NCBI GenBank assembly: GCA_964106645.2
Contig: OZ067039.1
Direction: 5' to 3' (one strand)
DNA: 64,000 bases
DNA from: Podarcis pityusensis
Taxonomy: Eukaryota
The notes below the pieces were generated by a model. It was not told where the DNA came from. It was given only the letters and a program-made list of their open reading frames with translations, and did not search any database. A program made the translations under genes and the position numbers. Of the stretch, positions 3,011 through 63,319 are shown piece by piece. Each line of letters starts with the position of its first letter. The stretch's first letter is position 1.

Positions 3011-3776
3011 AGTAGTTTTCTTGGCCAATTGGATTATTGTGCTGTGAAAGGTGGCCTACTTTTGATGCTCTGTATACATATGCATGTGTGGATGCTCAGG
3101 TACAAGAGTGATTCTCATTTAATAGTGCAAACTAGCTAGAAGTACATGATTATATTTTGTATTGCACAAGGGCCTCAGCCATTTCATACATTATACTGAG
3201 ACAAGCCCAGTTGTGTTACTGAGTGTTAACTCAACAAGGAGTTGCAGCCATTCTATGGCTCCTGTTGCAACAGATGCATGCATGGCATCCACATATTACA
3301 TTTCTAGGTGTGCACAAACACAAAATTACTTGTACACCTACGAAATGTCCTTTGTGAAATGATTCTCGCCTTCAGACAGTTAGATAAATTCAACAACAGA
3401 AGATTCTGTTAAGCAGAGTGAAAGGCCAAGGTTAGGACAATATAAGAAGTTTAAAGAGCAATATAAGGAAGCTACAGCTTTCTGCAGTTCCTTATCTATG
3501 AGAGGAAATGCCAAAAGATTCAAGGCTGAAATGAGACTCCATGGCAATTTAAAAAGATGGTTTTGAAAGTGGAAGCTCTTCCTTAATCTCCACCACCACC
3601 TTTGCTCCTAGAATTGGGAGGGAGGCAGAAAAGAAATTGCTGGGGCATGGCTTCATCCTTGGGCTGGGGGTTAGACACCTCTGTTCTTAAGTAACCCCCT
3701 CAGCTTTGATGTGAGCAGTTGAAGCAACTGGTGCGGCAAGAGATCTAAGGCATGGCGTTTCTCTTTCCTTCCGCAG

Positions 3777-5315
3777 GTCATTGAGAAGAACCTGAGTGGT
3801 TGGTGGTACATCCAGATAGAGGAGAAGGAAGGCTGGGCACCAGCTACTTTCATTGACAAGTACAAGAAAACTAGCAATGCATCTAGGCCTAACTTCTTGG
3901 CACCGCTGCCGAATGAAATGGCGCAGCTCCGGCTTGGTGACAGTGTGGCAGAGAGCAGCTCTAATGGAGAAGCCTTTGGGCCGTCCAGGCCTCTGCCTGA
4001 AGCACCACCCAATGACATAGACAGTGCAGGGAAATGGAAAGCGAAGGAGGTTTCCAAGGGTGCCCTGCCAGAGAGCAGCGATGCATCTCTCTCCGTAGGG
4101 TACGAGGAGATTTGTGATCGGGACACCGAAGAGAAGCCGAGCCTCCCTCCGAGGAAGGAATCCATAATTAAATCCGAAGAGGAGTTGATAGAAAGGCAGC
4201 GGTTGGAACAGAGGCCACCTCCAAAGCCTCCTGGCATGATTTTGCCTGCGATTCCCCCCAAGCAGGCTGTTCCTCCGAGGGACAACAGGAAGCCAGAGCT
4301 CAAAACAGAGAAGGGGAAACTGTTCCAGCTGAAAAACGAAATGGGGCTAGAGTGTGGGCACAAGGTGTCTCCCAAAGAGGTGAAGAAGCCGAACCTTCGG
4401 CCCACTGTTAAGCCTGCCAAGCCAAAAGTTGAGCCCCCGGAGGACAAGCCTGAGCTCGGGACCCCAAACCCTTTCCTGAAATCAAAGCCTCAGGTCAGAC
4501 CCAAGCCAGCAGCAGCCCCTAGGACAGATCCCCCTCAGGGAGATGACAAACTAGACATTTGCAACCTGAGGAGCAAACTCAGGCCTGCCAAGGCGCAAGA
4601 GAAGCCTTCTGATCAGGACCCCACGGCTGGCGAGAGTGCCTTCAGTAACAACGCACTTCCTGTGGAATCTTCCGTCCGGTCTCAGGAAAGGCCAGCTGTG
4701 GAGATGAGGCCTCCATCCAGACCAGACAGCCAAGTCTTCAAGGAGGCTGCTTCATCCAAAGTTCCTTTTGGCTCCGCAAAGCTGAGTGAGGCTGATTCCA
4801 AGGGTAGCTTTCCAGCTTCCAGGGAACCACCTCAGCGGCCCGTAGTGCCACCCAGGAGGCCTCCTCCTCCCAAGAAAGCCTCCACACCATCGCCTGCATC
4901 TTCGTTTGCCCCCTCTCCAGAAAATAAAGCTCCACAGAGGGAAGTGCCTGAACTGAGAGCTGCCTCTGTCCCTGGCAGGCCGATGCTGGTTCCACCAAAA
5001 GCCAAAGGTTTCCTGCCAGCTCCGTGCCAAGATGAAGCCAAAGCGAAAAGCGGCCTAGGCCCAAAGGGAATCCCCAAGCCTGTGGAGAGGGAGAGAGGAT
5101 CCGTCCCCATCACCAGTTCAGACATCTCCAGAGAAGCCCTCTATGTGGCTGTGGCAGATTTTGATGGCGATGAAGAAACCAGCAGCTTTAAAGAAGGGAC
5201 CTTGTTTGAAGTCCGAGAGAAGAACAGCAGCGGCTGGTGGTTCTGCAAGGTCCTTGCTGGAGCGCCATGTTGGGAAGGCTGGATTCCTTCCAATTATCTC
5301 AGAAAAAAGCCATAA
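3777..5315 (+). CDS. SH3PXD2B: SH3PXD2B last coding exon: end of SH3-3, Pro-rich linker, SH3-4
   Basis: Acceptor ttccttccgcAG (3774-3776). Reads [31 protein letters not shown], in frame with ORF 3897-5315, and ends ALYVAVADF...[14 protein letters not shown]. The terminus matches Tks4, not Tks5. Confidence 0.97.
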
Positions 5316-19865: not shown

Positions 19866-20110
19866 TTAAGGGCGGTAGATTTTAATAATGTCTTTGATGA
19901 CCCGTCGGCAGATTGGACAGCAGGCATTGAGTTGTTTCTTCAGCTTAAGACCACAGGTGTTGCAGAGGCACATGTGTCCACAGGTGTAGATCACCACGTC
20001 CACCTCGTTGTCAAAGCAAACGGTGCACTCGCCATTCTTGCTGCTTGACGGCTCCGGAGGTGGGAACACGGGAGACACTGGAGGGCTCAGAGGTGAACTT
20101 GGAGCAGTCA
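19866..20110 (-). CDS. NEURL1B: NEURL1B exon 5 (last): C3HC4 RING finger
   Basis: Acceptor ttccttgcAG. Encodes (V)[10 protein letters not shown]...[26 protein letters not shown]...[17 protein letters not shown]. The KIYRP terminus matches NEURL1B rather than NEURL1. Confidence 0.97.
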
Positions 20111-23485: not shown

Positions 23486-23726
23486 CAGTGGTACATCTAG
23501 TTATGACCCTAATTCATTCCGCATGTCCATTCTTAACCTGAAACTGTTCTTAACTAGAGGCGTGCTTTCGCTAATGGGGCCTCTTGCTGCCGCTGCGCCG
23601 CTGGCACACAATTTCCGTTCTCATCCTGGGGCAAAGTTCTCAGCTCGAGGTAACTCTAGCAGGTTAGTGGAGTTTGTAACCTGAAGCGTTTGTAACCTGA
23701 GGTGTTTGTAACTCGAGGTACCACTG
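23486..23726. mobile_element. Tc1/mariner (Tigger/pogo-like) MITE, 241 bp
   Basis: TA|CAGTGGTACATCTAGTTA...TAACTCGAGGTACCACTG|TA, with subterminal TTTGTAACCTGA repeats. Confidence 0.88.
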
Positions 23727-24015
23727 TAGAACAGTATGCACATTTACCAGCTTCAGTTTATGAAAAAGTACATGCAAGTTGCCAGACAAGCGGCAGAGTC
23801 ATCTAGTTTTGAATATCTCCCCAAATATAAGATCATGCTTCAGCAATGCCAATGCAAGGCACAGCTGGTGGCAACAAGGGTTTAGCTGGCCTATAAAATG
23901 CCAGAGAGAGAGGCAACAGCCCACTGAAGCCAGGGAGAATGCAATGCCTCTCCAAAGCTGTAAAGAAATCTCAGCGTTACACTACACTACACCCATATTT
24001 TTGAGCTGCACTTAC

Positions 24016-24723
24016 CTAATATTTTGAGTTGATTGATTACACCATGGATCGTGAAAAATACCCACAGTGACTGCGAGGTATCAACGCACATCAGCATCCC
24101 ACGGTTGATCCCGTTTATTCCATGGTGCACTTCTCCATTTGGCAAGACCACAAAGCTGAGGATGTCCCCATTGTTGAGGACTGGGAAACCTCGGCAAACC
24201 ACCCAGTATTCCTTGCGATCCAGAAGGAAGTCTGGATCCGCTGGGAGCTCATTTGTTCGTAAAGTACCAGGATCACAAGAAGTGATGCCAAACGTGAGGG
24301 CTCCATAGTACGGCAGCCCCAGGTGTCCAACTTCCACAAAGAGGCTTTCGCCAATGTGCAAAGGCCGGTCGGAAAACACCAAAGTCCTATTGCTCTCTTG
24401 CCAGTTGGTGCAGGCAGACATCCGGTCCTGAGAAAAGTTAATGTCGGGCCCACGAGTAGGGTGGAAACGCAGATCTGTATCGAGAAAGGCAGGCACCACT
24501 TGGGCAAGCTGCCGTCTGCTTGGACAGCAAGGGATGGTGTGATTATCTGTTGGCAGCGCAGGCATACGGCTCAAGTTCAGATTAGCAATTTTGGCCACCA
24601 CCTGGTTGTTCTCCAGTTCGTTGTTGTTGAAGTTGGCTGAGTCGTGGCTGCTCTGTGGAAGGCAAGTGCTGAGTCGTGCGTTGCTGAGACGGGTGGAGGT
24701 CATCGTCTCGGCAAACATGCTGT
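24016..24723 (-). CDS. NEURL1B: NEURL1B exon 3, 708 nt, second NHR (Neuralized) domain
   Basis: Acceptor gcctcacAG and donor GTAAGT. Encodes (D)SMFAETM...NNELENNQVVAK...LRFHPTRG...LVFSDRPL...LLDRKEYWVV...QLKIL, phase 1-1. Confidence 0.96.
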
Positions 24724-25729
24724 CTGTGAGGCAATGAGAAGGAAAAGCTGTATTAGAGGCAAGCTGAAAATGGCAGCTTACCCTGGCTTGATCGTTGCTT
24801 TTTGGCCACTCCTTCATCATACTTAAAACATCAAATATGATACTTTTCCTAGTCCAACTGTGTTTCCAATTAAAGTGGGAAAAAGGAACATAAAGAAAAA
24901 TATCTGGAAACACAGAATTTTCAAGGCAGTTAGGAATTCTTCCATCAAACAAAGCTCCACCAATATTTGCTATTCTACGGGAGCGCTGTCCAATGGAACA
25001 CCGTACTACAAGCTGGTTGCCTGATGCAGGGGCCTCTATTCCTTGCAGACTTGTATTTGGTGCTCACAAAAAGAGACCTGTTTCTGTTCACTGCCTCACT
25101 TAATTGCAGAAAAGCAGATTCTGCAAACTACACTACCTACTTGAGAGAATAAATATTCCTTCCTCGTCTCATCTCTCTCATACCTCCGCACCCCCACCCC
25201 GTCCTTGCCAATTTAATTCATGTAAGAGAGACTGGAAAGAGTCTCTTTTAATCACTTTAGACCATTAATAATAAATTGTGTGTAATGTACTTGCATGCTA
25301 AAATAGCAGTAGTGACCTTTAAAAAAATGTTTCAAAGCACACTAGACTATTTGTTACTGACAGGCTATGTGAACAAGCGACAAACTCTTTCCCAGCACAA
25401 CTTCCCATCTGATAGTGCCCAATGTAAACAAAAAAACAAAAAAACCCACAAACATTTCTAGCCCCAAAGCATAAAACTAGAAGCACATCACTCCATATGA
25501 ACCATTCCCCTGTATAGTTATTGAGAGTTGATAACGAGAAAAAGAATGGGTATGAGGAAAGCAAAGGGCAAGATACTTCGGCAAATTTTGATTTAGGACA
25601 TTCAGATTTCTAAAAGGAAGAATCATCATAAGATTATTTCCCCAAAATCTTAGATCTATAATCTGGGGGCCACTACCTAGACAGTAATTCATGCTGAAAT
25701 CATGGCATGACTTGTGGATGGCAGCTTAA

Positions 25730-28219: not shown

Positions 28220-28576
28220 GGGACACAGGTGGTGCTGTGGGTTAAACCACAGAGCCTAGGACTTGCTGATCAGAAGGTCGGCGGTTCGAATCCCTGTGAC
28301 AGGATGAGCTCCCGTTGCTCAGTCCTTGCTCCTGCCAACCTAGCAGTTTGAAAGCACCTCAAAGTGCAGGTAGATAAATAGGTACCGCTGTGGCGGGAAT
28401 GTAAACGGTGTTTCCGTGCACTGCTCTGGTTCGCCAGAAGTGGCTTAGTCATGCTAGCCACATGACCCGGAAGCTGTACGCCGGCTTCCTCGGCCAAAGC
28501 GAGATGAGTGCCGCAACCCCAGAGTTGGCCACGACTGGACCTAATGGTCAGGAGTCCCTTTACCTTTACCTTTACC
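28220..28576 (+). mobile_element. Full-length Sauria SINE (Squam1) with 11-bp TSD
   Basis: GGGACACAGGTGGTGCTGTGGGTTAAACC head, B box GGTTCGAATCC and (ACCTTT)n tail. CCCAGTAACAG occurs at 28204-28214 and 28575-28585. Confidence 0.93.
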
Positions 28577-28743
28577 CAGTAACAGGACTGGATGAAAATG
28601 AAAATGCAAGCTTCGTATCCGGGCTTTACACTTTACAACATAAGCACCGCTACCTATCTCACACAGCTTGTTCTGAGAGAAGGGAAACATGACGAAAGGG
28701 TCTATACAGAAGGAGATTTTTTTAACAGACCATATACACCTAC

Positions 28744-29304
28744 CTAGTATTTGCACTTCATGAGTGATTCCATAGACATCTATCAGTGCCCAGAGAGGCC
28801 CGGAGACTTTGACGCCACAGTGAAACAGAATTGGCTCTTCGTCATTAACGCTATAGAAAACTCTCCCATGGCGGTCGACCCAGAACGCCAAGATGTTGTC
28901 TCTTAGTGCAAACCTCTCTGGCAGGGCTTTGGCCCAGAAGCCTGGCCGCGTCACCAGGTCTGGGCAGGCGTATTTTGGTATGTCGTCTGCGCTCATCTGC
29001 GATGGATCGTGAGTGGTGAAGCCAAAGCGCAGGGCCCCGCTCCACCCGTGGTGCACGGACACCAGCTTGAGACGCACTTTCTCGTAGAGGTGGATGGGCC
29101 GGTTGGTGAAAGTGACGCCATTGCAGAAACTGTTCCTCCGAGTGGCTTTGCGGGAATGGGCATCCAGGCGTATGTTTTTTCCTTTGGCCTGGAAATGGAA
29201 TCGCGGAGGTTCAGTAATGGTGAGGACAGACCGCCTCTCATGGCTACTGTTAGGCAGTGTGTAATAAGGCCTGTGGGATACAGAGCGAGCCTGTTGACTG
29301 GTGT
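28744..29304 (-). CDS. NEURL1B: NEURL1B exon 2, 561 nt, first NHR domain
   Basis: Acceptor tatttgcAG and donor GTAGGT. Encodes (D)TSQQARSVSHRPYY...PRFHFQAKGKNIRLD...RRNSFCNGVTFTNRPI...GWSGALRFGFT...LWALIDVYGITHEVQIL, phase 1-1. Confidence 0.96.
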
Positions 29305-29779
29305 CTGCAAATAATAATAAAAAAAAACAGGAAGAAGAGACATTGTTAGGAATTTGCTAATTTAGGTTGCAATGCTAAGAAAACTGCTCGCCCCCCCCCC
29401 CCCCAGCTACTGATATGTGCAGATTCTAGGCTAGATTTTAACAGACTAATCAGATACAAACACACTCCTTATTTGGACAAAGTTCCTCTGCTCCCTGTTC
29501 TTGTAATCCTAGTAAGAATGACATTTTTCCAGTGGAGAAAAATTCTGTCTCTCAGCCAGTGTTCAGCTGGAACTAGTTTTTAAATGAATACATTGCTAGA
29601 CACAACTGACACCTCAATAGAAACACACACACACAAAAACTTAGCACACTAGGTTGAGGTGGGGAGATCCAAACTGCAGTAGTCACACTGCTACATTTGG
29701 GGCCAAAAGAGGAACTGACTAGACAATTTCATTGCTGACATAAACAGATTTGCTCAACAACTGCTTCTATAATTTAAAA

Positions 29780-31642: not shown

Positions 31643-33109
31643 TAATAGTTGCAGATTCTGAAAGCATTTCACAGGGTCTCTCCTTCTCTACAGACCTTTC
31701 TATGGAAGGAGCTCAAGAATGCAATCCAACCCATTCCAGCCTGCAAACACATCCCACTGTGTTAAGTGGTGTTTATGTACAAGTAAACATGCACAGGACA
31801 GGGCAGCAAGACAGGCATCCTGTCAGTTTTGGTGAGATTATTATTTTTTTTTACCTCCCCCTTAGGACTGCCCTGCTTCCCTGCTTTTTATCTGCAGAAA
31901 TCAGCAGATGGAGGTTTTTATGGTATGGAGCTAAGCATTCTCACCTCCCAATGTCTGCAGTACAAGCTTGCAAAGGGTTTAGAAAACGTGCCAGTATAAT
32001 AATAATAATGATAAAGGAACAAAGCTGGCAACAATACCTCTTGAATGATATCTTTAGCAGGCCAAATCCTTAGCAGCAGCAGTGCCTCTCAGGAGGTTAT
32101 ACAAGCCTGTTTGTAATGTAAACATCCTGCCAAAGGATGACAGATATGTTTTAAGAAAAATTTTCCAAAAGGAGAGAACCAAGATGACTAGCAAATCTAA
32201 ATAAATAACTGGGAGGGAAGTACTTGCACTTCCCAAGTGAACCACATGGGCAATGAACCACTCTCTGGTGCAAGAGATTCAGCTGGAAGAACTGAGAGAC
32301 TAGCAACTTGCTGAAGGTGAAAATAAGTGTTTCTGGCCAGAGCGTCCTGGGAGCATCACTTCTGTTACAGTAACACCTAAGTACGTGGCAGCCATGAAGA
32401 GGTGGGAAACATAAGGTGTTTCAGGAGTTACATGGAAGAGCACATGCAAACAAGTTTATCTTTATATGAGAACTAGAAACAGAAACTGAACTCTTAAGAT
32501 ATTTCTTTTCATTACACTTATCTTAAGAATGGAGATATACGGGAAAGCATGGAGAGGCACATAATAGCGGTACACATAATGAATAGCGAGTTATAGATAG
32601 CCCCAACGGGGTAAACGTTCTCAGGCATTCAGGGCAGCGTTGTTTACACCAATAGCGGAAGCTTTATCGCCACCTTCAATAAGAGCACGATAAGGCCAGA
32701 GAACAGAATCAAAGACCGCCAGGCACAAATGCATTAAGGCCTGTGACACATACACTTTTGTGATTAAGCGGCAAACTGCTCCCACTTATCACTATTGGCC
32801 TATCCAATACACTGTACAACTTGCCTTGTGAATGGGAAAACTCTCCATCTACTTATAGTCAGTACAAGAGCGCAGTTTCTGCACAATCTGATCTAGATAT
32901 ATTGGCACTGACTGCCAAGAAAACCATTCTTAATATCTGCTTATTGAGTTTTTAATGGGTGTCCCTTCCTCCAAAATAGTCATTGTTTCATTCTTCTTAG
33001 TTGACTAATTATATAGTTGGCAACAGCCACAGTCAGACCATAACTCAACTGCCTTGTCCAGGAATGGCTGCCATAAGGAGTGGTGGAGAGAGGAATATTT
33101 CAGTAAATA

Positions 33110-33325
33110 CAGCAAGCCCACAACCTATGTGCATTTAACTTTTGCACATTCAGCTTCATGTGCGGGCAAAATAAATAAATAAAAATAGAAAGGGTGTGAG
33201 GTTCTGGGGGAAATGATTTGGGCAATCCCACTTACCATTGAGCTCAATAGATTTTGACTATGCATAATTTGGCTTTAGGCACAATCCGCCGGAACATAAC
33301 CCCTGCATAAGCTGCCTGCTTACTG
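33110..33325. mobile_element. Degenerate Tigger-like MITE
   Basis: TA|CAGCAAGCCCACAACCTATG...CATAAGCTGCCTGCTTACTG|TA. Confidence 0.55.
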
Positions 33326-33418
33326 TACATCCTGTTGTACAGCAACAAACTGTTTCACTATCTTCAAACACATTCTTCAGCACACCTTCACATAGTTTAT
33401 GATCTTAAGGTATAAAAA

Positions 33419-33449
<31 letters not shown>

Positions 33450-33466
33450 CACACACACACACACAC
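33419..33466. repeat. (GT)12-GCGCGC-(AC)9 palindromic microsatellite
   Basis: Read directly; 33425-33466 is a perfect 42-bp palindrome. Confidence 0.95.
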
Positions 33467-33540
33467 GCATCTACATTTTATATAATCCCTATCCCATTCC
33501 TTGAATGTACAAGCAGAGAAGAATATCAAGCCAAGAAATT

Positions 33541-33544
<4 letters not shown>

Positions 33545-33588
<44 letters not shown>

Positions 33589-33596
33589 GGATGGAT
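33545..33596 (+). repeat. (AGAT)11(GGAT)2 tetranucleotide repeat
   Basis: Read directly. Confidence 0.95.
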
Positions 33597-36500
33597 GATA
33601 GGAATTTTATTATGCATTGGATAAATCTGGAGAATTTTAAGAGGTTGATGAGTAATGTCAAAAGATGGAAAAGCAGTTGTATAGCCAAAACGCTACCATC
33701 ATTCCAAGCTGATGAACGGGAAGTTTAGGCCAGGGGTTATTGAAAAAACAAAACAAACAGGAAAGCATGTTGCGATTATACAATAGGGAATTATCCTGAA
33801 GGAAATGAATGGGTCATATTATCCTTTACTAGAACGGACACCTGTCAGTTACCCTTTTAAAACATACAGCACTTTTTCTTTAGCGGGATTGGGACAATGA
33901 AAGAGCACTGTAAATATAGTTGCCCCATAGCAGGCATCATTTTTGACAAGATATTTTGCAAGCGTAAAACCAGCATCTTCCACAAGAGATGCAGAGGAAA
34001 GAGTGGCAAAAAGCATTTTCCATGCACCAGACATCAACCTTGTCTGACAACACATTCGCATTCCAGTGGGTGCCTCATTCTCTACCATTCTGAAGTCCAC
34101 AGCAAAGGATAGCTTCAATTGGTACCTAAGTAATCGTATCCTATTTCCAGATACTTCTGATCACGAAAGTGTTTTGGACAGTGTATGGGGAAATATCTCT
34201 AGCATTTCAGTAACCAGCCTTGTCAATCTGTGAGTGGTGGACTAATGGCGTACATGTACACCCCAAAATGACAGTGGTAAAATATTGTCATAAATTGACA
34301 TATGATAAGTGAGCATGTTATTGGCTGTAATTACCTCAACTATTTTACATTGATTGGTCAATCTTTGGTGCGGCTGATAGAAATAGAGAATGTGAGATTG
34401 AAGAAGCAGCTCATAGGAAATGAAAGGAGAATATGGACTATTCAAAATGGAATACGAGATGTCTCAGCTCACATAATATCACCATCCTGAGGTTGGAGAA
34501 AGTGGTGGCAGTGGTAGCTGTATTGGTAACCAGGAACACATCTGTTGCAGTGATTATATTTTTAGCTTTTTTCAGAAGACTAGTTTGCAAACAATCCAAA
34601 TCATTCCCCACTCATACTGCAGCCCCTCACACAGTTTAAATCACACTTATTTATATATCTTTTAATTTAATTTAGTGATTTAATCCAGACACATGAGGAT
34701 TTGGAGAAACCTGACTGGAATGGAATTGGGGCCCACAGTGTATCCCTCACTGCTAGTTTTAGAAAAGCTCTTAGCTGCCAATCTCATGGGGATTTCAGTT
34801 GATTTTTTTTAAAAAAACTGTAATACATCCTTAAATCATGGGTTTGGTATTCTTTTCAACATGCATTTTTTTAAAATAAAAAACCCCAACACCAGTTATT
34901 TCTGGTATTGTTTGGCTTTGTAAATGGAAGGACACACAAACCCTTTTCTTTAATGTACATTGTACTAACCTCACTGAAGCCTTTAAAATTCCATTTTAGA
35001 ACAAAACTCTTATTGTGAACAATACTTAAACCAACGAAGATTCCCCAAGACACACACAAACACACTACAGTTTGCATCATCTTGTACAAAGCATTATATA
35101 TTCTGTGTCTTTCTTCTCAGCCACACATATCAGCATTACAACCACACAATGTTCATCTCTTGAACACTCCGGCAGCTTAAATTATTTGGTGTCTCTGGAG
35201 GGTAATGGCAATGATCCAAACTGGAGAAAATGCTGAAATTAAAAGACATGTTTATACAGGACACACTTCTCCTAAAACGTGCACTGGAAGAACGAAAGAC
35301 TATTTGGCTTCAATGACTCATATGGCTGAAAAGGCCAGAAGATAACCTAGCCCAGTGACTTACATCAAGGCAGTCCTGCTACCTAACGACTCATCTTGAA
35401 TTGACCTACATAATGCAGACTATAACATCTCACAAGCAGAGGGCAGCAGAGAGGAGAACCGCTCAAAATGCCCACAGAACAGATAGTACCAAACAATAAA
35501 AGAACCACACACTACAGGAAAATGTGGTGGTGGTGGTTTTCAGTACCACTATCTGAGACAAACAGACTTTTAATCTAGGAGAAAACTTCCTAAATTCAAA
35601 TATGACATTATGTGAGACTTAAGCCAAGAAGAAAACCATCCACAGACTCTCCCCAAAAGTCATTTTAAACAGGGACACTACATCCAACCTCTTTCAAGAT
35701 GTAGGAGGACTTAGTACCTCCAAAGAAATGGGGATGGGGGAGAACCCAACTATATTGAATGTAGAAAATATTTTTTCTTTCACCACAATGAGTCCACAAG
35801 AATAGAGGCACCAGATTAAACAATCTTAAAACACAATTAAAAATCAAACCATGTTTTTTTTTAAAGTTATAGCTTTGTCCAAGGCCACAGTAATACTTTC
35901 CCTAAGCCAACAGAGCCATAACCTAAATCCTAATCAGCTAATGGCCACTTAAAGCCCTGAGGCAGGCCACCTGGTTTCATTTGCACAGATGGAAAGCAGG
36001 AGCAATTGTACTAAAATCTCTAAAGGACATGAGACAAGTACGCCAGAGAGCCATAGCAACAAGTCTCAGAGCTTGCTCTCACAAATCAATTATTGCTTAA
36101 TGCTTTTTCATTCAGCTTTGTCCTCTCCTGGGCATTTAAAAATTGTGTTTCAAGAGGAAACCCATAGTCCCTTTGTGAATATGCTGTGAAGGTTTTAATA
36201 AAGTCAGAATATATGAGAGAGAAGTTTTAATGAGTAAGGTTATCATTACAGAGCCATTCTGAAAAACAGTTTTGTCAACAGTATCTCCTGCAATGGTCCC
36301 CTCTTCCCTGTGACACAAACATCACCACATTAGTATTTTGTCCCATGCACGATGCACATGCATGAACCTTTGAAGTGCAGGTGAGAGTGTTTGGCCAATC
36401 TAAACAAGAAGAATTGAGAACTGAAGGCTCCCACTTTGGTAGCAAGCAACTGCTCTAGTTTAAACTCAGAAATGCAAACCTGTGAAGATAAGCCCTTTAT

Positions 36501-37259
36501 GATTTAGTATCAGAAACGCAGAAAGGTAAAACAAAAACAAATAAAAACCCTCTTAACATTGGAGACAGTATATGTGTAGATAAGCACTACTTAAAATGTG
36601 TTACCAAACTGCTCCTAATTGTTCATTCTTGTCCCACAACAAAGATGCAACTGTGGAAAAGGGCAATGTAGCAGAATTCCAGACACAGGAAATGCTATGC
36701 TATGATTATTCAGAGCAAAATAAGTTAGTAGCTCACAGCTTGGAACAGCACATCCCTTGCCTCTGAAAACACAGCCCTTCTATAGGATGAAACCCAAGAT
36801 ACCTGATGATGAATCAGAATTTGTCCCAACTCTGGGTTACTGGAATCTAACAGACATCAAAACAATGGAAGACTAACGATAAAGGGGAACGAAGTGGGTT
36901 GTTGAAAAGATGGTGTTCAAGGCATTTAAGACGGGCCTAAAGGGAATGATAGATTATTGCAAGAAAAATGTTTATTCCTTCTCCTATTGTGTTCAGGGAA
37001 ATGTTTTAGATGCTGCACTTCAGCCCTGTCTAGTCACAATACATCAGTAGGTGTACATGTCCCAGTTGCGAAGACGCAGAGAAAAGGAAGAGATCTTGAT
37101 ACTGGATGCATTACAAAAGCTTCAACTTTCACACTTTTAAAAGGCCAGTTTTTAGCCCATAGCTATGAAGACAGACTTCCAAGTGTGGAGCTTGTATGCT
37201 CTAAATATTCAGAGAGAATGAACACACAAACTTAGCTGAAACTTTTTCTGAGGTGGAAT

Positions 37260-37590
37260 AAAAGGTAAAGGGACCCCTGACCATTAGGTCCAGTCGTGGC
37301 CGACTCTGGGGTTGCGGCACTCATCTCGCTTTATTGGCCGAGGGAGCCGGCGTACAGCTTCCGGGTCATGGGGACAGCATGACTAAGCCACTTCTGGCGA
37401 ACCAGAGCAGCGCACGGAAATGCCGTTTACCTTCCCGCCAGAGTGGTACCTATTTATCTACTTGCACTTTGACATGCTTTCAAACTGCTAGGTTGGCAGG
37501 AGCAGAGACCGAGCAACGGGAGCTCACCCCGTCATGGGGATTCAAACCACCAACCTTCTGATCGGCAAGCCCTAGGCTCTGTGGTTTAAC
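37260..37590 (-). mobile_element. Sauria SINE, slightly 5'-truncated
   Basis: Reverse complement of the 28220 element from GTTAAACCACAGAG to the CCTTTACCTTT tail. No clear TSD. Confidence 0.93.
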
Positions 37591-44875: not shown

Positions 44876-45439
44876 TTCTTCTGTTGAATTTATTGCTCTT
44901 GAATTTGCTAGTAGCATACATTGGAATAGTTCAAAATGTGGAATAATCGTAAGCAATTCTTCTTAATTCTTAAGCCCTGCACAAAAGGGATTTCCCTTCT
45001 CTCCTCCCCTGCACCCCCCAAAATTAGCTGGGGGTGGGTCAGGATAACCCCCTGCTGAACAACACACAGCAGGAGGGGGGGTCATTCCATCCAGCAAGCT
45101 GAAATATTTGTGTTGTTGGAATGTTTGGCATAATGCAAAGTGGAATTCCTCCCACTATAAATAGACTTGTTGGGTGCAATAGTTCTTTTGCAGCAAAATC
45201 CTATACGTATTTGTTTGGACGTAAGTCCCACTGTGTTGAATGGAGCTTTCTTTCACGTAAGGGTGCAAAAGGATTGCAGTTTTAGAATCCTTTATCTTGC
45301 CTCTAAATAAGCTCAGCTTTTCAGTCTTCACGGCATGATGCAAAAGTAACTCCTTTTCAGACCTCTATTTGTACAAAATGGAAAAAGATTTCTGGAGGAT
45401 AATGCTATCAGTGGCTACTGATCATGATCACTATACCAC

Positions 45440-45641
45440 AGAATGCGTGCTAAGAGGAAGGCACGTTTGGCAAACCCTCACCATGATCAACTCCCACCCA
45501 GAAACCTATGTCCACACTGTGGAAGGACATGTGGATCCAGAATTGGCCTCCACAGTCACTTACAGACTCACTGTTAAGACCGTGTTCACGGAAGACAATC
45601 TTACTCTGCTACAAGTGGTCACCAAAGAAGAAGAGAAGAAG
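45440..45641 (+). mobile_element. 5'-truncated RTE-clade LINE 3' end (zinc-finger C-terminus plus (GAA)n tail)
   Basis: Frame 45443-45577 reads MRAKRKARLANPHHDQLPPRNLCPHCGRTCGSRIGLHSHLQTHC*, followed by AAGAAGAAGAGAAGAAG. Confidence 0.8.
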
Positions 45642-45796
45642 CTCAATACCAGCAGGTGGGGGGCAAACAGCAGGACAGGGCTACTGTGCTCAAGTCCCAT
45701 TTTGGGCTTCCCAGAGGCATCTGACTGGCTACTGTGGGAACAGAATGCCAAATTAGTTAGGCCTCAAATCCAGCAGGGGTTTTTGTGTGTTCTTAT
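45642..45796 (+). mobile_element. CR1 3'UTR and tail; upstream piece at ~45390-45437 separated by the RTE insert
   Basis: GGGCTTCCCAGAGGCATCTGACTGGCTACTGTGGGAACAGAATGC...ATCCAGCAGGG...TGTTCTTA is a typical reptile CR1 terminus. Confidence 0.7.
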
Positions 45797-46787
45797 AGGA
45801 GACGGTGGGGGGAAATACTTCACTTTAATCAAACTCAAAATTAACGTTATTCCAGAGTGCAGGGACAGACAGCCGTCCTTTTGACGTAAAAACAATCATC
45901 CTTTGTCACCAGAAAAAGCAAGCAAACAAAAAAATACAAAAGCTGCTGAAGTTTCAAGCACAAGTTGCGCCTTTGCTAAAGAAAGCAATTCGCTGAAATG
46001 GCTCTCTTACAAAACACCTATTAGGAATGCCTACTTTGCCAAAGGGAAAAAAGGTGGCTCGTCTTACACTAGAACCCTGGCCTCATTAAAGCTTAATTGA
46101 AAGGAGCAGCAGGGGGAAGAGGGCAGGCTAGAGTTCTGTGGGTGGATGCAAGCAGTGCCTATTCTCCCCCCCCCCCCGAAGGGCGTTTAGAGGTTGTGGA
46201 AATACACCCCCATTGTGTCACAAATGTCACCTGGAGAAGCCCCATTGAAAGGGCAAGAATCAGACTTAACTTATCTCATTCAGATTCAGCTTTCGGTGGT
46301 CAGTGGGCAAGAAATGTGAACACAGCTCTACACCCCATATTTGGCTCTGCTGGTTACCACTGATCCGCTTATGTGTCACAATGTCTTGCTTCTCAAAAAC
46401 AAAAACAAAAAACCCTTGTCTATCATTTCAGTATCCCCAACGGAACGGTAAAATCTTTGACATATTTCTGCTACATATGAAATATTATAGAGGTTGAAGA
46501 TTCTTATGCTCTAAACCTGAAGCCCGTGGTTAAAATCTCAGTTCAACTATGAAGTTCTCGTGTGAAATTAGCATGCTGCCATATTTCCTCTTTACTGATT
46601 AATAATCTTTCTGGGAAACATTATATGACTTCCACTCAAATGTTATTTTTAATGACAAATGAAGTTTAAAAATCTAAGCAATTTAAATGATGCTCAATGA
46701 GTTCTAATTTTCATTTCTTGGCTGGGTGCAAACATTTTCCTGTCATGTTCCTATTAAATATTGCCAATACCTACTGATTTATAGCCT

Positions 46788-61198: not shown

Positions 61199-62267
61199 CA
61201 GAATGCCTTAAAAGGCAGAAATTGAACTTCAATTCCCCCCCAATATTTCTCATTAAAAGCTACAGTATCTAAGGAATACAGAGGAATGTTGATTATTTGG
61301 GCTTTTTCCATGATGTAAGTGAGAATGGTCTGTCTGGACTTTCTCTGCATGGGATCAGAATAAAACTCTCTCTTCTGCAACTTCAAAAAAGTTCTAATGT
61401 AGAATTCAAGAAAACAAACAGAAAGTAAAGTCAGCAAGGAGCTTTGATGCATCAAATAAACATTTCACTTAAGTGCTGGGTGAATATTAGTCTGGTTTAT
61501 CCCAGCTTTGCTACAAACTGTTGCTACTGTGATGACTGGGCAAAAGAATTTTCTTTTGCTTAAACAAGAAAGCATCTGCTGACACAATATAAAGAAGAGC
61601 TCTTCAAGCTTCTGTAGATGGGGAGATGAAAGATTCCTAAAGATACTGGGACAGTTATATGATCACCCTAAACACCCCTGGCATTTTCAAATGGGAATTA
61701 GCCCAAGAATTTAAATATGCACAGAAGAATCTTTAGTTCTCCAGCAACTGTTGTGGAAGAATATTAAGACATTCCATGTTCCAGAATGGAGGAACATCAC
61801 TTGTGCAACAAAATATAATATAGGCATAATCCTACATATCCACAGAACGTGCGACATAATTGCCACATTTCAAGCTTTAAAGATTCTATCATTTCAATGT
61901 AAATCAACCTCTTTCTCCACAATTTTAAATACTGTATGTAGTAATATGTTCTCTATTTCTCCATATCTTACTCCTAAGAGCATATATAGCTTGAAAAATA
62001 TGTTTTTAACAGCAATCCTGGCACAATGCAATTTCAAGTTGAATGGAGCTTTAATGATGCAAATGTTTTTAAAAGACCCATAACAAAATAACATACCATA
62101 TTTTTCACTCTATATTTTATAAATTCTACAACTTCCCCACAGCAAAGCGAGGAAAATAGATTTTTTACTACTAGGAACTGCTCATACCTAAATAAAAGTT
62201 TTATGTAACTTCCTGCTCATTATTAATATACCATGTTAGTTCTAGTAAAAAAACACACACACACATA

Positions 62268-62606
62268 GCGCTGTGGGTTAAACCACAGAGCCTAGGACTT
62301 GCCAATCAGAAAGTTGGCGGCTCGAATCCCTGCGACGGGGTGAGCTCCCGTTGCTCGGTCCCTACTCCTGCCAACCTAGCAGTTCGAAAGCACGTCAAAG
62401 TACAAGTAGATAAATAGGTACCGCTCTGGCGGGAATGTAAACAGCGTTTCCATGCGCTGCTCTGGTTCGCCAGAAGCGGCTTAGTCATGCTAGCCACATG
62501 ACCCAGAAGCTGTACGCCAGCTCCCTCGGCCAATAAAGTGAGATGAGCGCCGCAACCCCAGAGTCGGCCACGACTGGACCTAATGGTCAGGGGCCCCTTT
62601 ACCTTT
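62268..62606 (+). mobile_element. Sauria SINE, nearly full length
   Basis: GCGCTGTGGGTTAAACCACAGAG...GGACCTAATGGTCAGGGGCCCCTTTACCTTT. Many CpGs retained, suggesting a young copy. Confidence 0.93.
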
Positions 62607-63319
62607 TAAGTGGCTATTGGCAAGGAAGAAAACTGATGTGTATGTTACACCAAAACACTCAGACTCAGAGCAGAATCCAATTAAATACCAATGTGTACAA
62701 GTAATGAGCTTTTGTAATTGCAAAAGTGGTTCTGTGCAATTCCAATTGCACTCTGTAAAGTGTGGGAGCATGAGAAGACTCTGTGCTAGATAAGAGCACA
62801 GGTCCTTCATGAGTCAAGGATGTTAAACTCCCAGCTATTAACATTAATGTTTGTGTAGGTTGCTCTAGTCGAAAGCTTGCTTGATAAAGTTAAGCAGCTT
62901 AGCTTAGCAAAATGACAGAAGTAGCCTTAATAACCTCTTAACCTTTCTGCATGGCACAAAGCTGCTTCTCGTTGCTTTCCACATCAGAAGATGCGGAGCC
63001 CATCACCCTACTGAGTCTCTCTTATTTAACGGGTATAATCATCCTCCCTCCCACATGACAATAACATGTCTAGATCAACCTGACAAACAGTTTGCAGATC
63101 CTATGTTTTCAATGGCTGCAGAGATGCCTATCAGGTTGTCTGTGGCTCTTTCAGTTGGTGGACTTGAAGTTTCCATCAAGTCTGTACCTAGAATGGATTG
63201 TGATCTTGCTTTTTGGCTATTTTGTAAACTCTACAAACTGAGGCAAATAATGTAGAGCAAGGTGAAAATGAATTTGACCCTTTGGATAGTAGAAATACAG
63301 GTATGTGTTTTAAATATAT

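Follow-up and report, generated by a model that had tools for sequence, protein, structure and literature searches.

Why should some 230 bp of a lizard intron carry CpG dinucleotides at nearly the expected frequency when the DNA on both sides is strongly depleted of them? The segment lies near the middle of the stretch that we analysed (64,000 nucleotides, hereafter the window). A first-pass annotation made from the letters alone had described a 411-bp CpG-undepleted island at 32523..32933 with codon-like periodicity, bounded by inverted ends containing TTAA, and had suggested a recent foreign insert, an unmethylated enhancer, or a non-native sequence. The unusual composition was found to occupy the first half of that interval, which we therefore divided as follows.

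32523..32750, no strand: CpG-undepleted single-copy core, likely captured foreign DNA (limits approximate, set by composition)
32751..32933, no strand: host-like distal part, not clearly in the insert (judged from the composition of 32736-32933)

Recounting reproduced the CpG figures of the first-pass annotation, with 10 at 32540-32717, 12 up to 32871, and one in the 400 bp after 32872. Over 32523-32735 the 10 CpGs correspond to an observed/expected (o/e) ratio of 0.91 at a GC content of 0.46, compared with a CpG o/e of 0.22 for the whole window. The segments adjoining the core have CpG o/e values of 0-0.24 and TpG+CpA o/e values of 1.27-1.46; this TpG/CpA excess is absent from the core (0.95). 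In contrast, 32736-32933 resembles the host (CpG o/e 0.24, TpG+CpA o/e 1.46) and displays no periodicity (p 0.38-0.67). The proposed 411-bp island thus holds for approximately 32523-32750 and not for its distal part.

Measured along the strand of a neuralized-family gene, the core lies about 3.3 kb upstream of the first exon that encodes an NHR domain. The gene is presumably NEURL1B, and the core would fall in its intron 1. This gene and an SH3PXD2-family gene are arranged tail-to-tail in the window. We take the latter to be SH3PXD2B, although the best PDB match of its exon is the 2A paralogue rather than 2B.

3723-5315, plus strand: last exon of the SH3PXD2-family gene
19890-20083, 23987-25063, 28541-29356, minus strand: neuralized-family exons (two NHR domains and a RING-like exon)
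28745..29200, minus strand: nearest host exon sequence, first Neuralized (NHR) domain (Pfam PF07177, E 1.5e-45; PDB neuralized, E 1e-39)

Several other features of the window were recorded. A high-copy repeat remnant lies at 33105-33330, where contig depth was very high in all four runs of one comparison, and 33157-33291 shows signs of a segment skipped in some contigs. Further along are a (TG)n-(CA)n hairpin with only sub-threshold matches to miRNA families in Rfam (33411-33482) and, after it, a (GATA)n microsatellite (33540-33599). Three CpG-rich, SINE-like copies that are ~90% alike (28253-28659, 37219-37578, 62214-62635), presumably of Sauria type, have 22 matches each in a 464-kb sample of the genome. 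On the plus strand, 45339-45884 holds a stop-free frame of 181 codons with no Pfam match, of which only the last part matches a repeat. In the raw RNA runs, two partial reads (probably one pair) from the single-cell run X21 match ~32608-32662 over ~54 nt at 99%+ before running into other sequence. Their edges fall at AG and GT on the minus strand and could reflect adapter read-through or a cryptic exon in one molecule. Run X23 gave 0 reads over the locus, and the two runs provide no evidence on expression either way.

We next consider whether the core is a genuine and old part of the chromosome. In the 1.5-Gb genome, DNA searches, searches with two translated frames, and a 23-nt pattern allowing 3 mismatches placed it at a single position; the pattern gave one further 3-mismatch match, offset by one control match, and the genome search gives minimum counts. 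In organisms B, C, and D the core was covered by a single contig when likeness down to 80% was allowed. Among the 24 runs listed, 8 were compared, and the core could be assessed in four related species (B, C, D, and E). In organism C, the interval 31900-33216 falls on one contig, which shows 32 differences, up to 3 of them unplaced. A single contig of organism D covers 32060-33065; it has 24 differences and lacks 5 nt at 32568. Most of the island is also represented in organisms B and E, although E has no coverage at 32809-32880. The single contigs of C and D, which join the island to both flanks, establish that the core is integrated in the host chromosome and inherited. Runs X11 and X12 yielded no orthologous contig even for the flanks; filtering is the most likely reason, and neither run was taken to show an empty site.

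The single-copy state of the core and its colinear position in four relatives argue against both an assembly artefact and a recent arrival. It is native sequence, older than the split of five species ~2.4% apart. Four other species, each sequenced independently, have colinear contigs, which refutes the suggestion of a non-native sequence, and the word "recent" does not survive the presence of the core in all five species. No joint skipping the island was seen in organisms B-E because all four carry the core. Among three observations that would refute its reading, the first-pass annotation had named colinear alignment in relatives as ordinary sequence and a lack of homologues and further copies. 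These two were found, but species ~2.4% apart cannot reveal an older empty site.

A second property of the core is a decayed, codon-like pattern on one strand.

32525..32737, minus strand: disrupted frame of 70 codons with 2 stops and a preference for T-ending codons (T at 34/70 third positions)

The minus-strand peptide given in the first-pass annotation was reproduced, as was the excess of third-position pyrimidines on which its periodicity rested (52/71, against 38-39 at the other positions). Its significance is marginal, however, with 126/5000 shuffles and 38/1276 tiles of the window reaching the same value (p about 0.03), and over the full 411 bp the shuffle test lost the signal altogether (p 0.54). 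The preference for T at third positions is stronger than this purine/pyrimidine rhythm and was matched by only 3/708 GC-matched genome tiles. It extends over ~32510-32750, coinciding with the odd composition, and stands at 22/53 in the non-duplicated part of the frame. Neither stop position differs in any relative. Changes along the frame comprise 4 synonymous and 15 non-synonymous, per-frame counts that are uninformative.

Codon models were also applied to the frame. Under a T3-rich model from phiX174, which was selected after the T3 bias had been seen, the score of the minus frame was reached by 8/2000 (synonymous) or 1/2000 (full) dinucleotide shuffles, by 1-2/1838 genome tiles, and by 0/186 CpG-rich tiles. 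A T7 model was weaker (49/2000 synonymous or 2/2000 full shuffles, 25-50/1838 tiles, 8/186 CpG-rich tiles), and a model from lizard exons did not pick the frame out. A TMV-coat-like viral insert of the same genome, described below, does not score under the phiX174 model. Given the post hoc choice of model and the failure to score a known viral insert, these results provide moderate evidence for a coding origin of the core and none for a donor.

Searches for a homologue of the core gave no significant match, in agreement with the first-pass annotation, which had recognised neither repeat nor peptide. Six frames of 300 aa read through stops had no Pfam match. Against PHROGs and NCBIfam, the lowest value in six frames was E 0.017 (phrog_35471, plus frame). 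The full HMMER search covered the minus frame, the plus frame being covered by the word index and family libraries; in it, phmmer against 1.84 billion proteins returned only the core's own ORF (P0002) and P0003, a WD40 repeat that reached its score by adding up five stretches and that we discarded as an artefact. PDB and word-index searches, and searches of JGI metagenomes and GTDB, likewise gave nothing significant, and the best phage or plasmid hit by blastn/tblastn had E 1. One IMG/VR candidate (L004), which looks to us like the end of a baculovirus granulin gene, matched through a single 8-mer search pattern only (E 4e-4 among 8 candidates) and was rejected. Rfam had no match on the island, only on the neighbouring TG/CA hairpin, and no mitochondrial protein or RNA match that would indicate a NUMT appeared in six frames against Pfam or on the island against Rfam. 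A decayed fragment of 50-70 residues can be missed by searches for viral proteins. Literature searches found no description of this locus.

On present evidence, the best account of the core is that it is a short foreign coding fragment that was captured by end-joining repair, was fixed shortly before the species split, and is now decaying neutrally; we give this a probability of roughly 0.5. The foreign insert of the first-pass annotation thus remains the best reading (undepleted CpG, no TpG excess, a T-ending frame, CpG decay), stripped of its recency and of the TTAA-bounded inverted ends, and not supported as a transposon. We infer the foreign and coding origin, the mode of capture, and the timing from the observations given here, and four other explanations have to be weighed against them.

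The first is that the core is a host regulatory element serving the neuralized-family gene, either an enhancer or a small non-methylated island, and that it has been protected from germline methylation now or until recently. The core is single copy and intronic, lies near a developmental gene, and has no foreign homologue that we could find. Non-methylated islands of lizards have mammal-like CpG o/e at lower GC (Long et al. 2013, PMC3583005), and the core resembles them in its high CpG o/e, modest GC, and location. Such an element would be expected to keep its CpGs protected. The core differs from these islands in that its CpGs change several-fold faster than its other C/G bases and that no constraint is seen. 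Across the island, transitions were found at 4/24 CpG bases but 3/155 other C/G bases (Fisher p 0.007), and over 1006 bp at 4/28 and 10/392, respectively (5.6-fold, p 0.01). This 5.6-10-fold range rests on 4 events and considers only CpGs present in this window. Non-CpG events are not reduced relative to the flanks (13/411 inside, 14/595 outside; p 0.44, with low power at 2.4% divergence), and the 5-nt deletion in organism D passes through a CpG. The faster CpG change and the absence of any reduction in non-CpG change point to DNA that is methylated and free of constraint, which disfavours the unmethylated enhancer offered by the first-pass annotation, and the T3 bias would be left unexplained. 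We regard a host element as unlikely.

The same data point to a core whose CpG level is far above equilibrium. Of its 10 CpGs, organism B has lost none since the split, organism C 3, organism D 1 plus one deleted, and organism E 1. A CpG level out of equilibrium argues that the core came from a source without methylation decay. With no TpG excess and yet CpGs being lost in the relatives, the core probably arrived shortly before the common ancestor, an estimate that depends on the CpG level of the donor. CpG decay is apparent in the flanks as well. At 32254-32255 and 32417-32418 this species has TG where its relatives have CA, a pattern that fits one CpG decayed on opposite strands in the two lineages.

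A second alternative is a remnant from the interior of a low-copy mobile element, such as the ORF of a horizontally acquired retroelement or DNA transposon, whose other copies have been lost or are missing from the assemblies. The ORF of such an element would yield both CpGs and codon bias, and most comparable patches in the genome are repeats. In the 464-kb sample, 18 low-GC patches resemble the core (10 or more CpG in 213 bp, o/e of 0.85 or higher, GC of 0.48 or lower), 15 of which have other BLAST matches in the sample, many being evident repeats; the core is among the 3 without a match. A further patch of low GC, at L048:6874-7204 (G000:C2, near 62.007 Mb), contains 18 CpGs and likewise matches nothing else in the 464 kb. 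However, an element with CpGs so intact should have close siblings, and the core has one place in the assembly, single depth in the DNA runs of three relatives even at 80% likeness, and no Pfam match. This origin is distinctly unlikely.

The third alternative is chance in ordinary intron, where weak 3-base periodicity would happen to meet a handful of CpGs and two minor slippage duplications. The duplications lie at the left edge of the core.

32525..32588, plus strand: two short local duplications (32525-32536/32545-32556 and 32558-32569/32573-32588)

The 12-bp duplication that begins at 32525 contains two mismatches (32536, 32548) that are absent in organisms C, D, and E. The motif AATAGCG does occur three times, as the first-pass annotation had stated (32563, 32582, 32651), and nowhere else in the window, but two of the occurrences arise from the second duplication. 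Local duplication makes up part of the leftmost 70 bp, which inflates CpG and motif counts alike. Coincidence would also agree with a core that is colinear, neutral, and without a homologue, and with the marginal purine/pyrimidine periodicity, which was picked post hoc in one of 9 CpG clusters in the window. It sits poorly with the CpG count itself, since the local intron background predicts 1.4 in 213 bp where 10 are seen (Poisson p 2e-6, a value that ignores natural CpG clumping). It must further accommodate the absence of a TpG/CpA excess and a T3 bias that falls on the same 230 bp. We consider such a coincidence improbable.

The remaining alternative, a non-autonomous Kolobok-type element spanning 32527-32929, concerns the apparent ends of the island.

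32523..32532, plus strand: left arm of the inverted pair (10 bp, 6-bp match inside TTAA), probably fortuitous
32924..32933, minus strand: right arm of the inverted pair; its TTAA is private to this species

The exact 10-bp pair described in the first-pass annotation is present in this species, its left arm falls where the odd composition starts, and GA..TC lies inside the TTAAs, giving the RR..YY termini of Kolobok elements. Any inverted pair that starts with two purines produces such termini, so they are uninformative. All four relatives (B, C, D, and E) have G at 32933, making the right end TTAG in 4/4 relatives and the right TTAA private to this species; the pair kept by the relatives is 9 bp. 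In random zones of the same geometry a 10-bp pair occurred in 112/3000 and a 9-bp pair in 328/3000. The right arm lies ~175 bp past the end of the odd composition, and the last 180 bp of the proposed element are host-like. Kolobok elements have TTAA duplications and RR..YY termini (PMC9587614, PMC6004289), and the inverted repeats of KolobokP are 11-18 bp (PMC9587614). The core shares TTAA on both sides and RR..YY termini with Kolobok and T2-MITE elements in this one species. It departs from them in its 6-bp inverted match (11-18 bp in KolobokP) and its missing right TTAA in 4/4 relatives, and no family, transposase, or empty site was found for it. Elsewhere in the genome the paired-end pattern occurs at 3 unrelated loci, each within a Tigger-like repeat; the reversed control gives 2. 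A Kolobok-type element, present in one copy and failing three defining tests, is therefore very improbable. The apparent transposon ends are probably a coincidence and cannot serve as limits of an insert. The result is a useful negative one, showing that a perfect TTAA-bounded inverted pair can result from one species-private substitution. Separately, the 10-mer of the pair has 11 occurrences in 464 kb (1.4 expected) and is found internally in a repeat at 23508-23741 and L007-L009, presumably a Tigger/pogo-like MITE.

We return to the captured fragment as the preferred reading. Foreign DNA or cDNA, from a virus, a parasite, or a microbe, would have been patched into a chromosome break by end-joining repair and then fixed not long before the species split. 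Thereafter it would have been methylated like ordinary intron, losing CpGs by deamination, without a function. End-joining capture would explain the local duplications at the left edge, possibly a junction scar, and also the absence of poly(A), of a true target-site duplication, and of real terminal repeats. A narrower claim, less likely than not, is that the core is the fossil remnant of a lineage of lizard viruses or parasites without a recognisable relative among 1.84 billion protein clusters.

The core displays no sign of function, and its biological weight is small. If it is foreign, vertebrate genomes carry short captures from donors absent from present databases, and CpG disequilibrium together with codon bias can find and roughly date inserts where BLAST-type screens fail. 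If the narrower claim is true, the fossil would be datable evidence of an agent not yet sampled, revealed through composition alone and invisible to homology-based screens for endogenous viral elements (EVEs).

How does the core compare with known captures? Filler or templated insertions arise at junctions of double-strand-break repair, including captures of the NUMT type. Like these, the core is short and single copy, has local duplications at its edge, and lacks poly(A) and a true target-site duplication. It differs in having no mitochondrial protein or RNA match, and its junctions would need an empty site to be read.

Non-retroviral EVEs provide the second comparison. Among the properties by which they are recognised, similarity to a viral protein was not found for the core. 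Orthology in relatives was found, as were non-host composition and a decayed frame, the last two suggestive rather than diagnostic. Short benyvirus-like coat and RdRp EVEs are described in Podarcis, Lacerta, and Zootoca (PMC11521997). They resemble the core in being a few hundred bp long (216-453 bp in four lacertid examples) with broken frames. Searches of the present genome gave no match for Viral_helicase1; RdRP_2 gave none either, in a search whose control likewise matched nowhere. Two coat-like fragments were found.

G000:C17:16078968-16079416 (L054/L057), plus strand: TMV_coat-like endogenous viral fragment in two frames (PF00721, E 8.7e-17)
G000:C2:87818247-87818492 (L058), plus strand: probable second, more decayed coat-like fragment with three stops (39% to P0004, E 0.1)

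The first (G000:C17:16079069) is 67% identical to protein P0004 and adjoins a SINE. Its GC of 0.46 equals that of the core, and its CpG o/e is 0.73. It appears to be of the same kind as the benyvirus-like coat EVEs of Podarcis (PMC11521997). The last 18 residues of the second are closely similar to the C-terminus of P0004. A likeness of the core to tobamo/beny coat proteins, noticed by eye, was rejected when tested against these inserts and P0004 (BLASTP E 2.2; best phmmer E 0.058 over all frame pairs; 51/200 shuffles). The core has a different codon bias from the TMV-coat-like inserts and no sequence similarity to them. They are unrelated to it, and what they show is only that captures of this type happen in this lineage.
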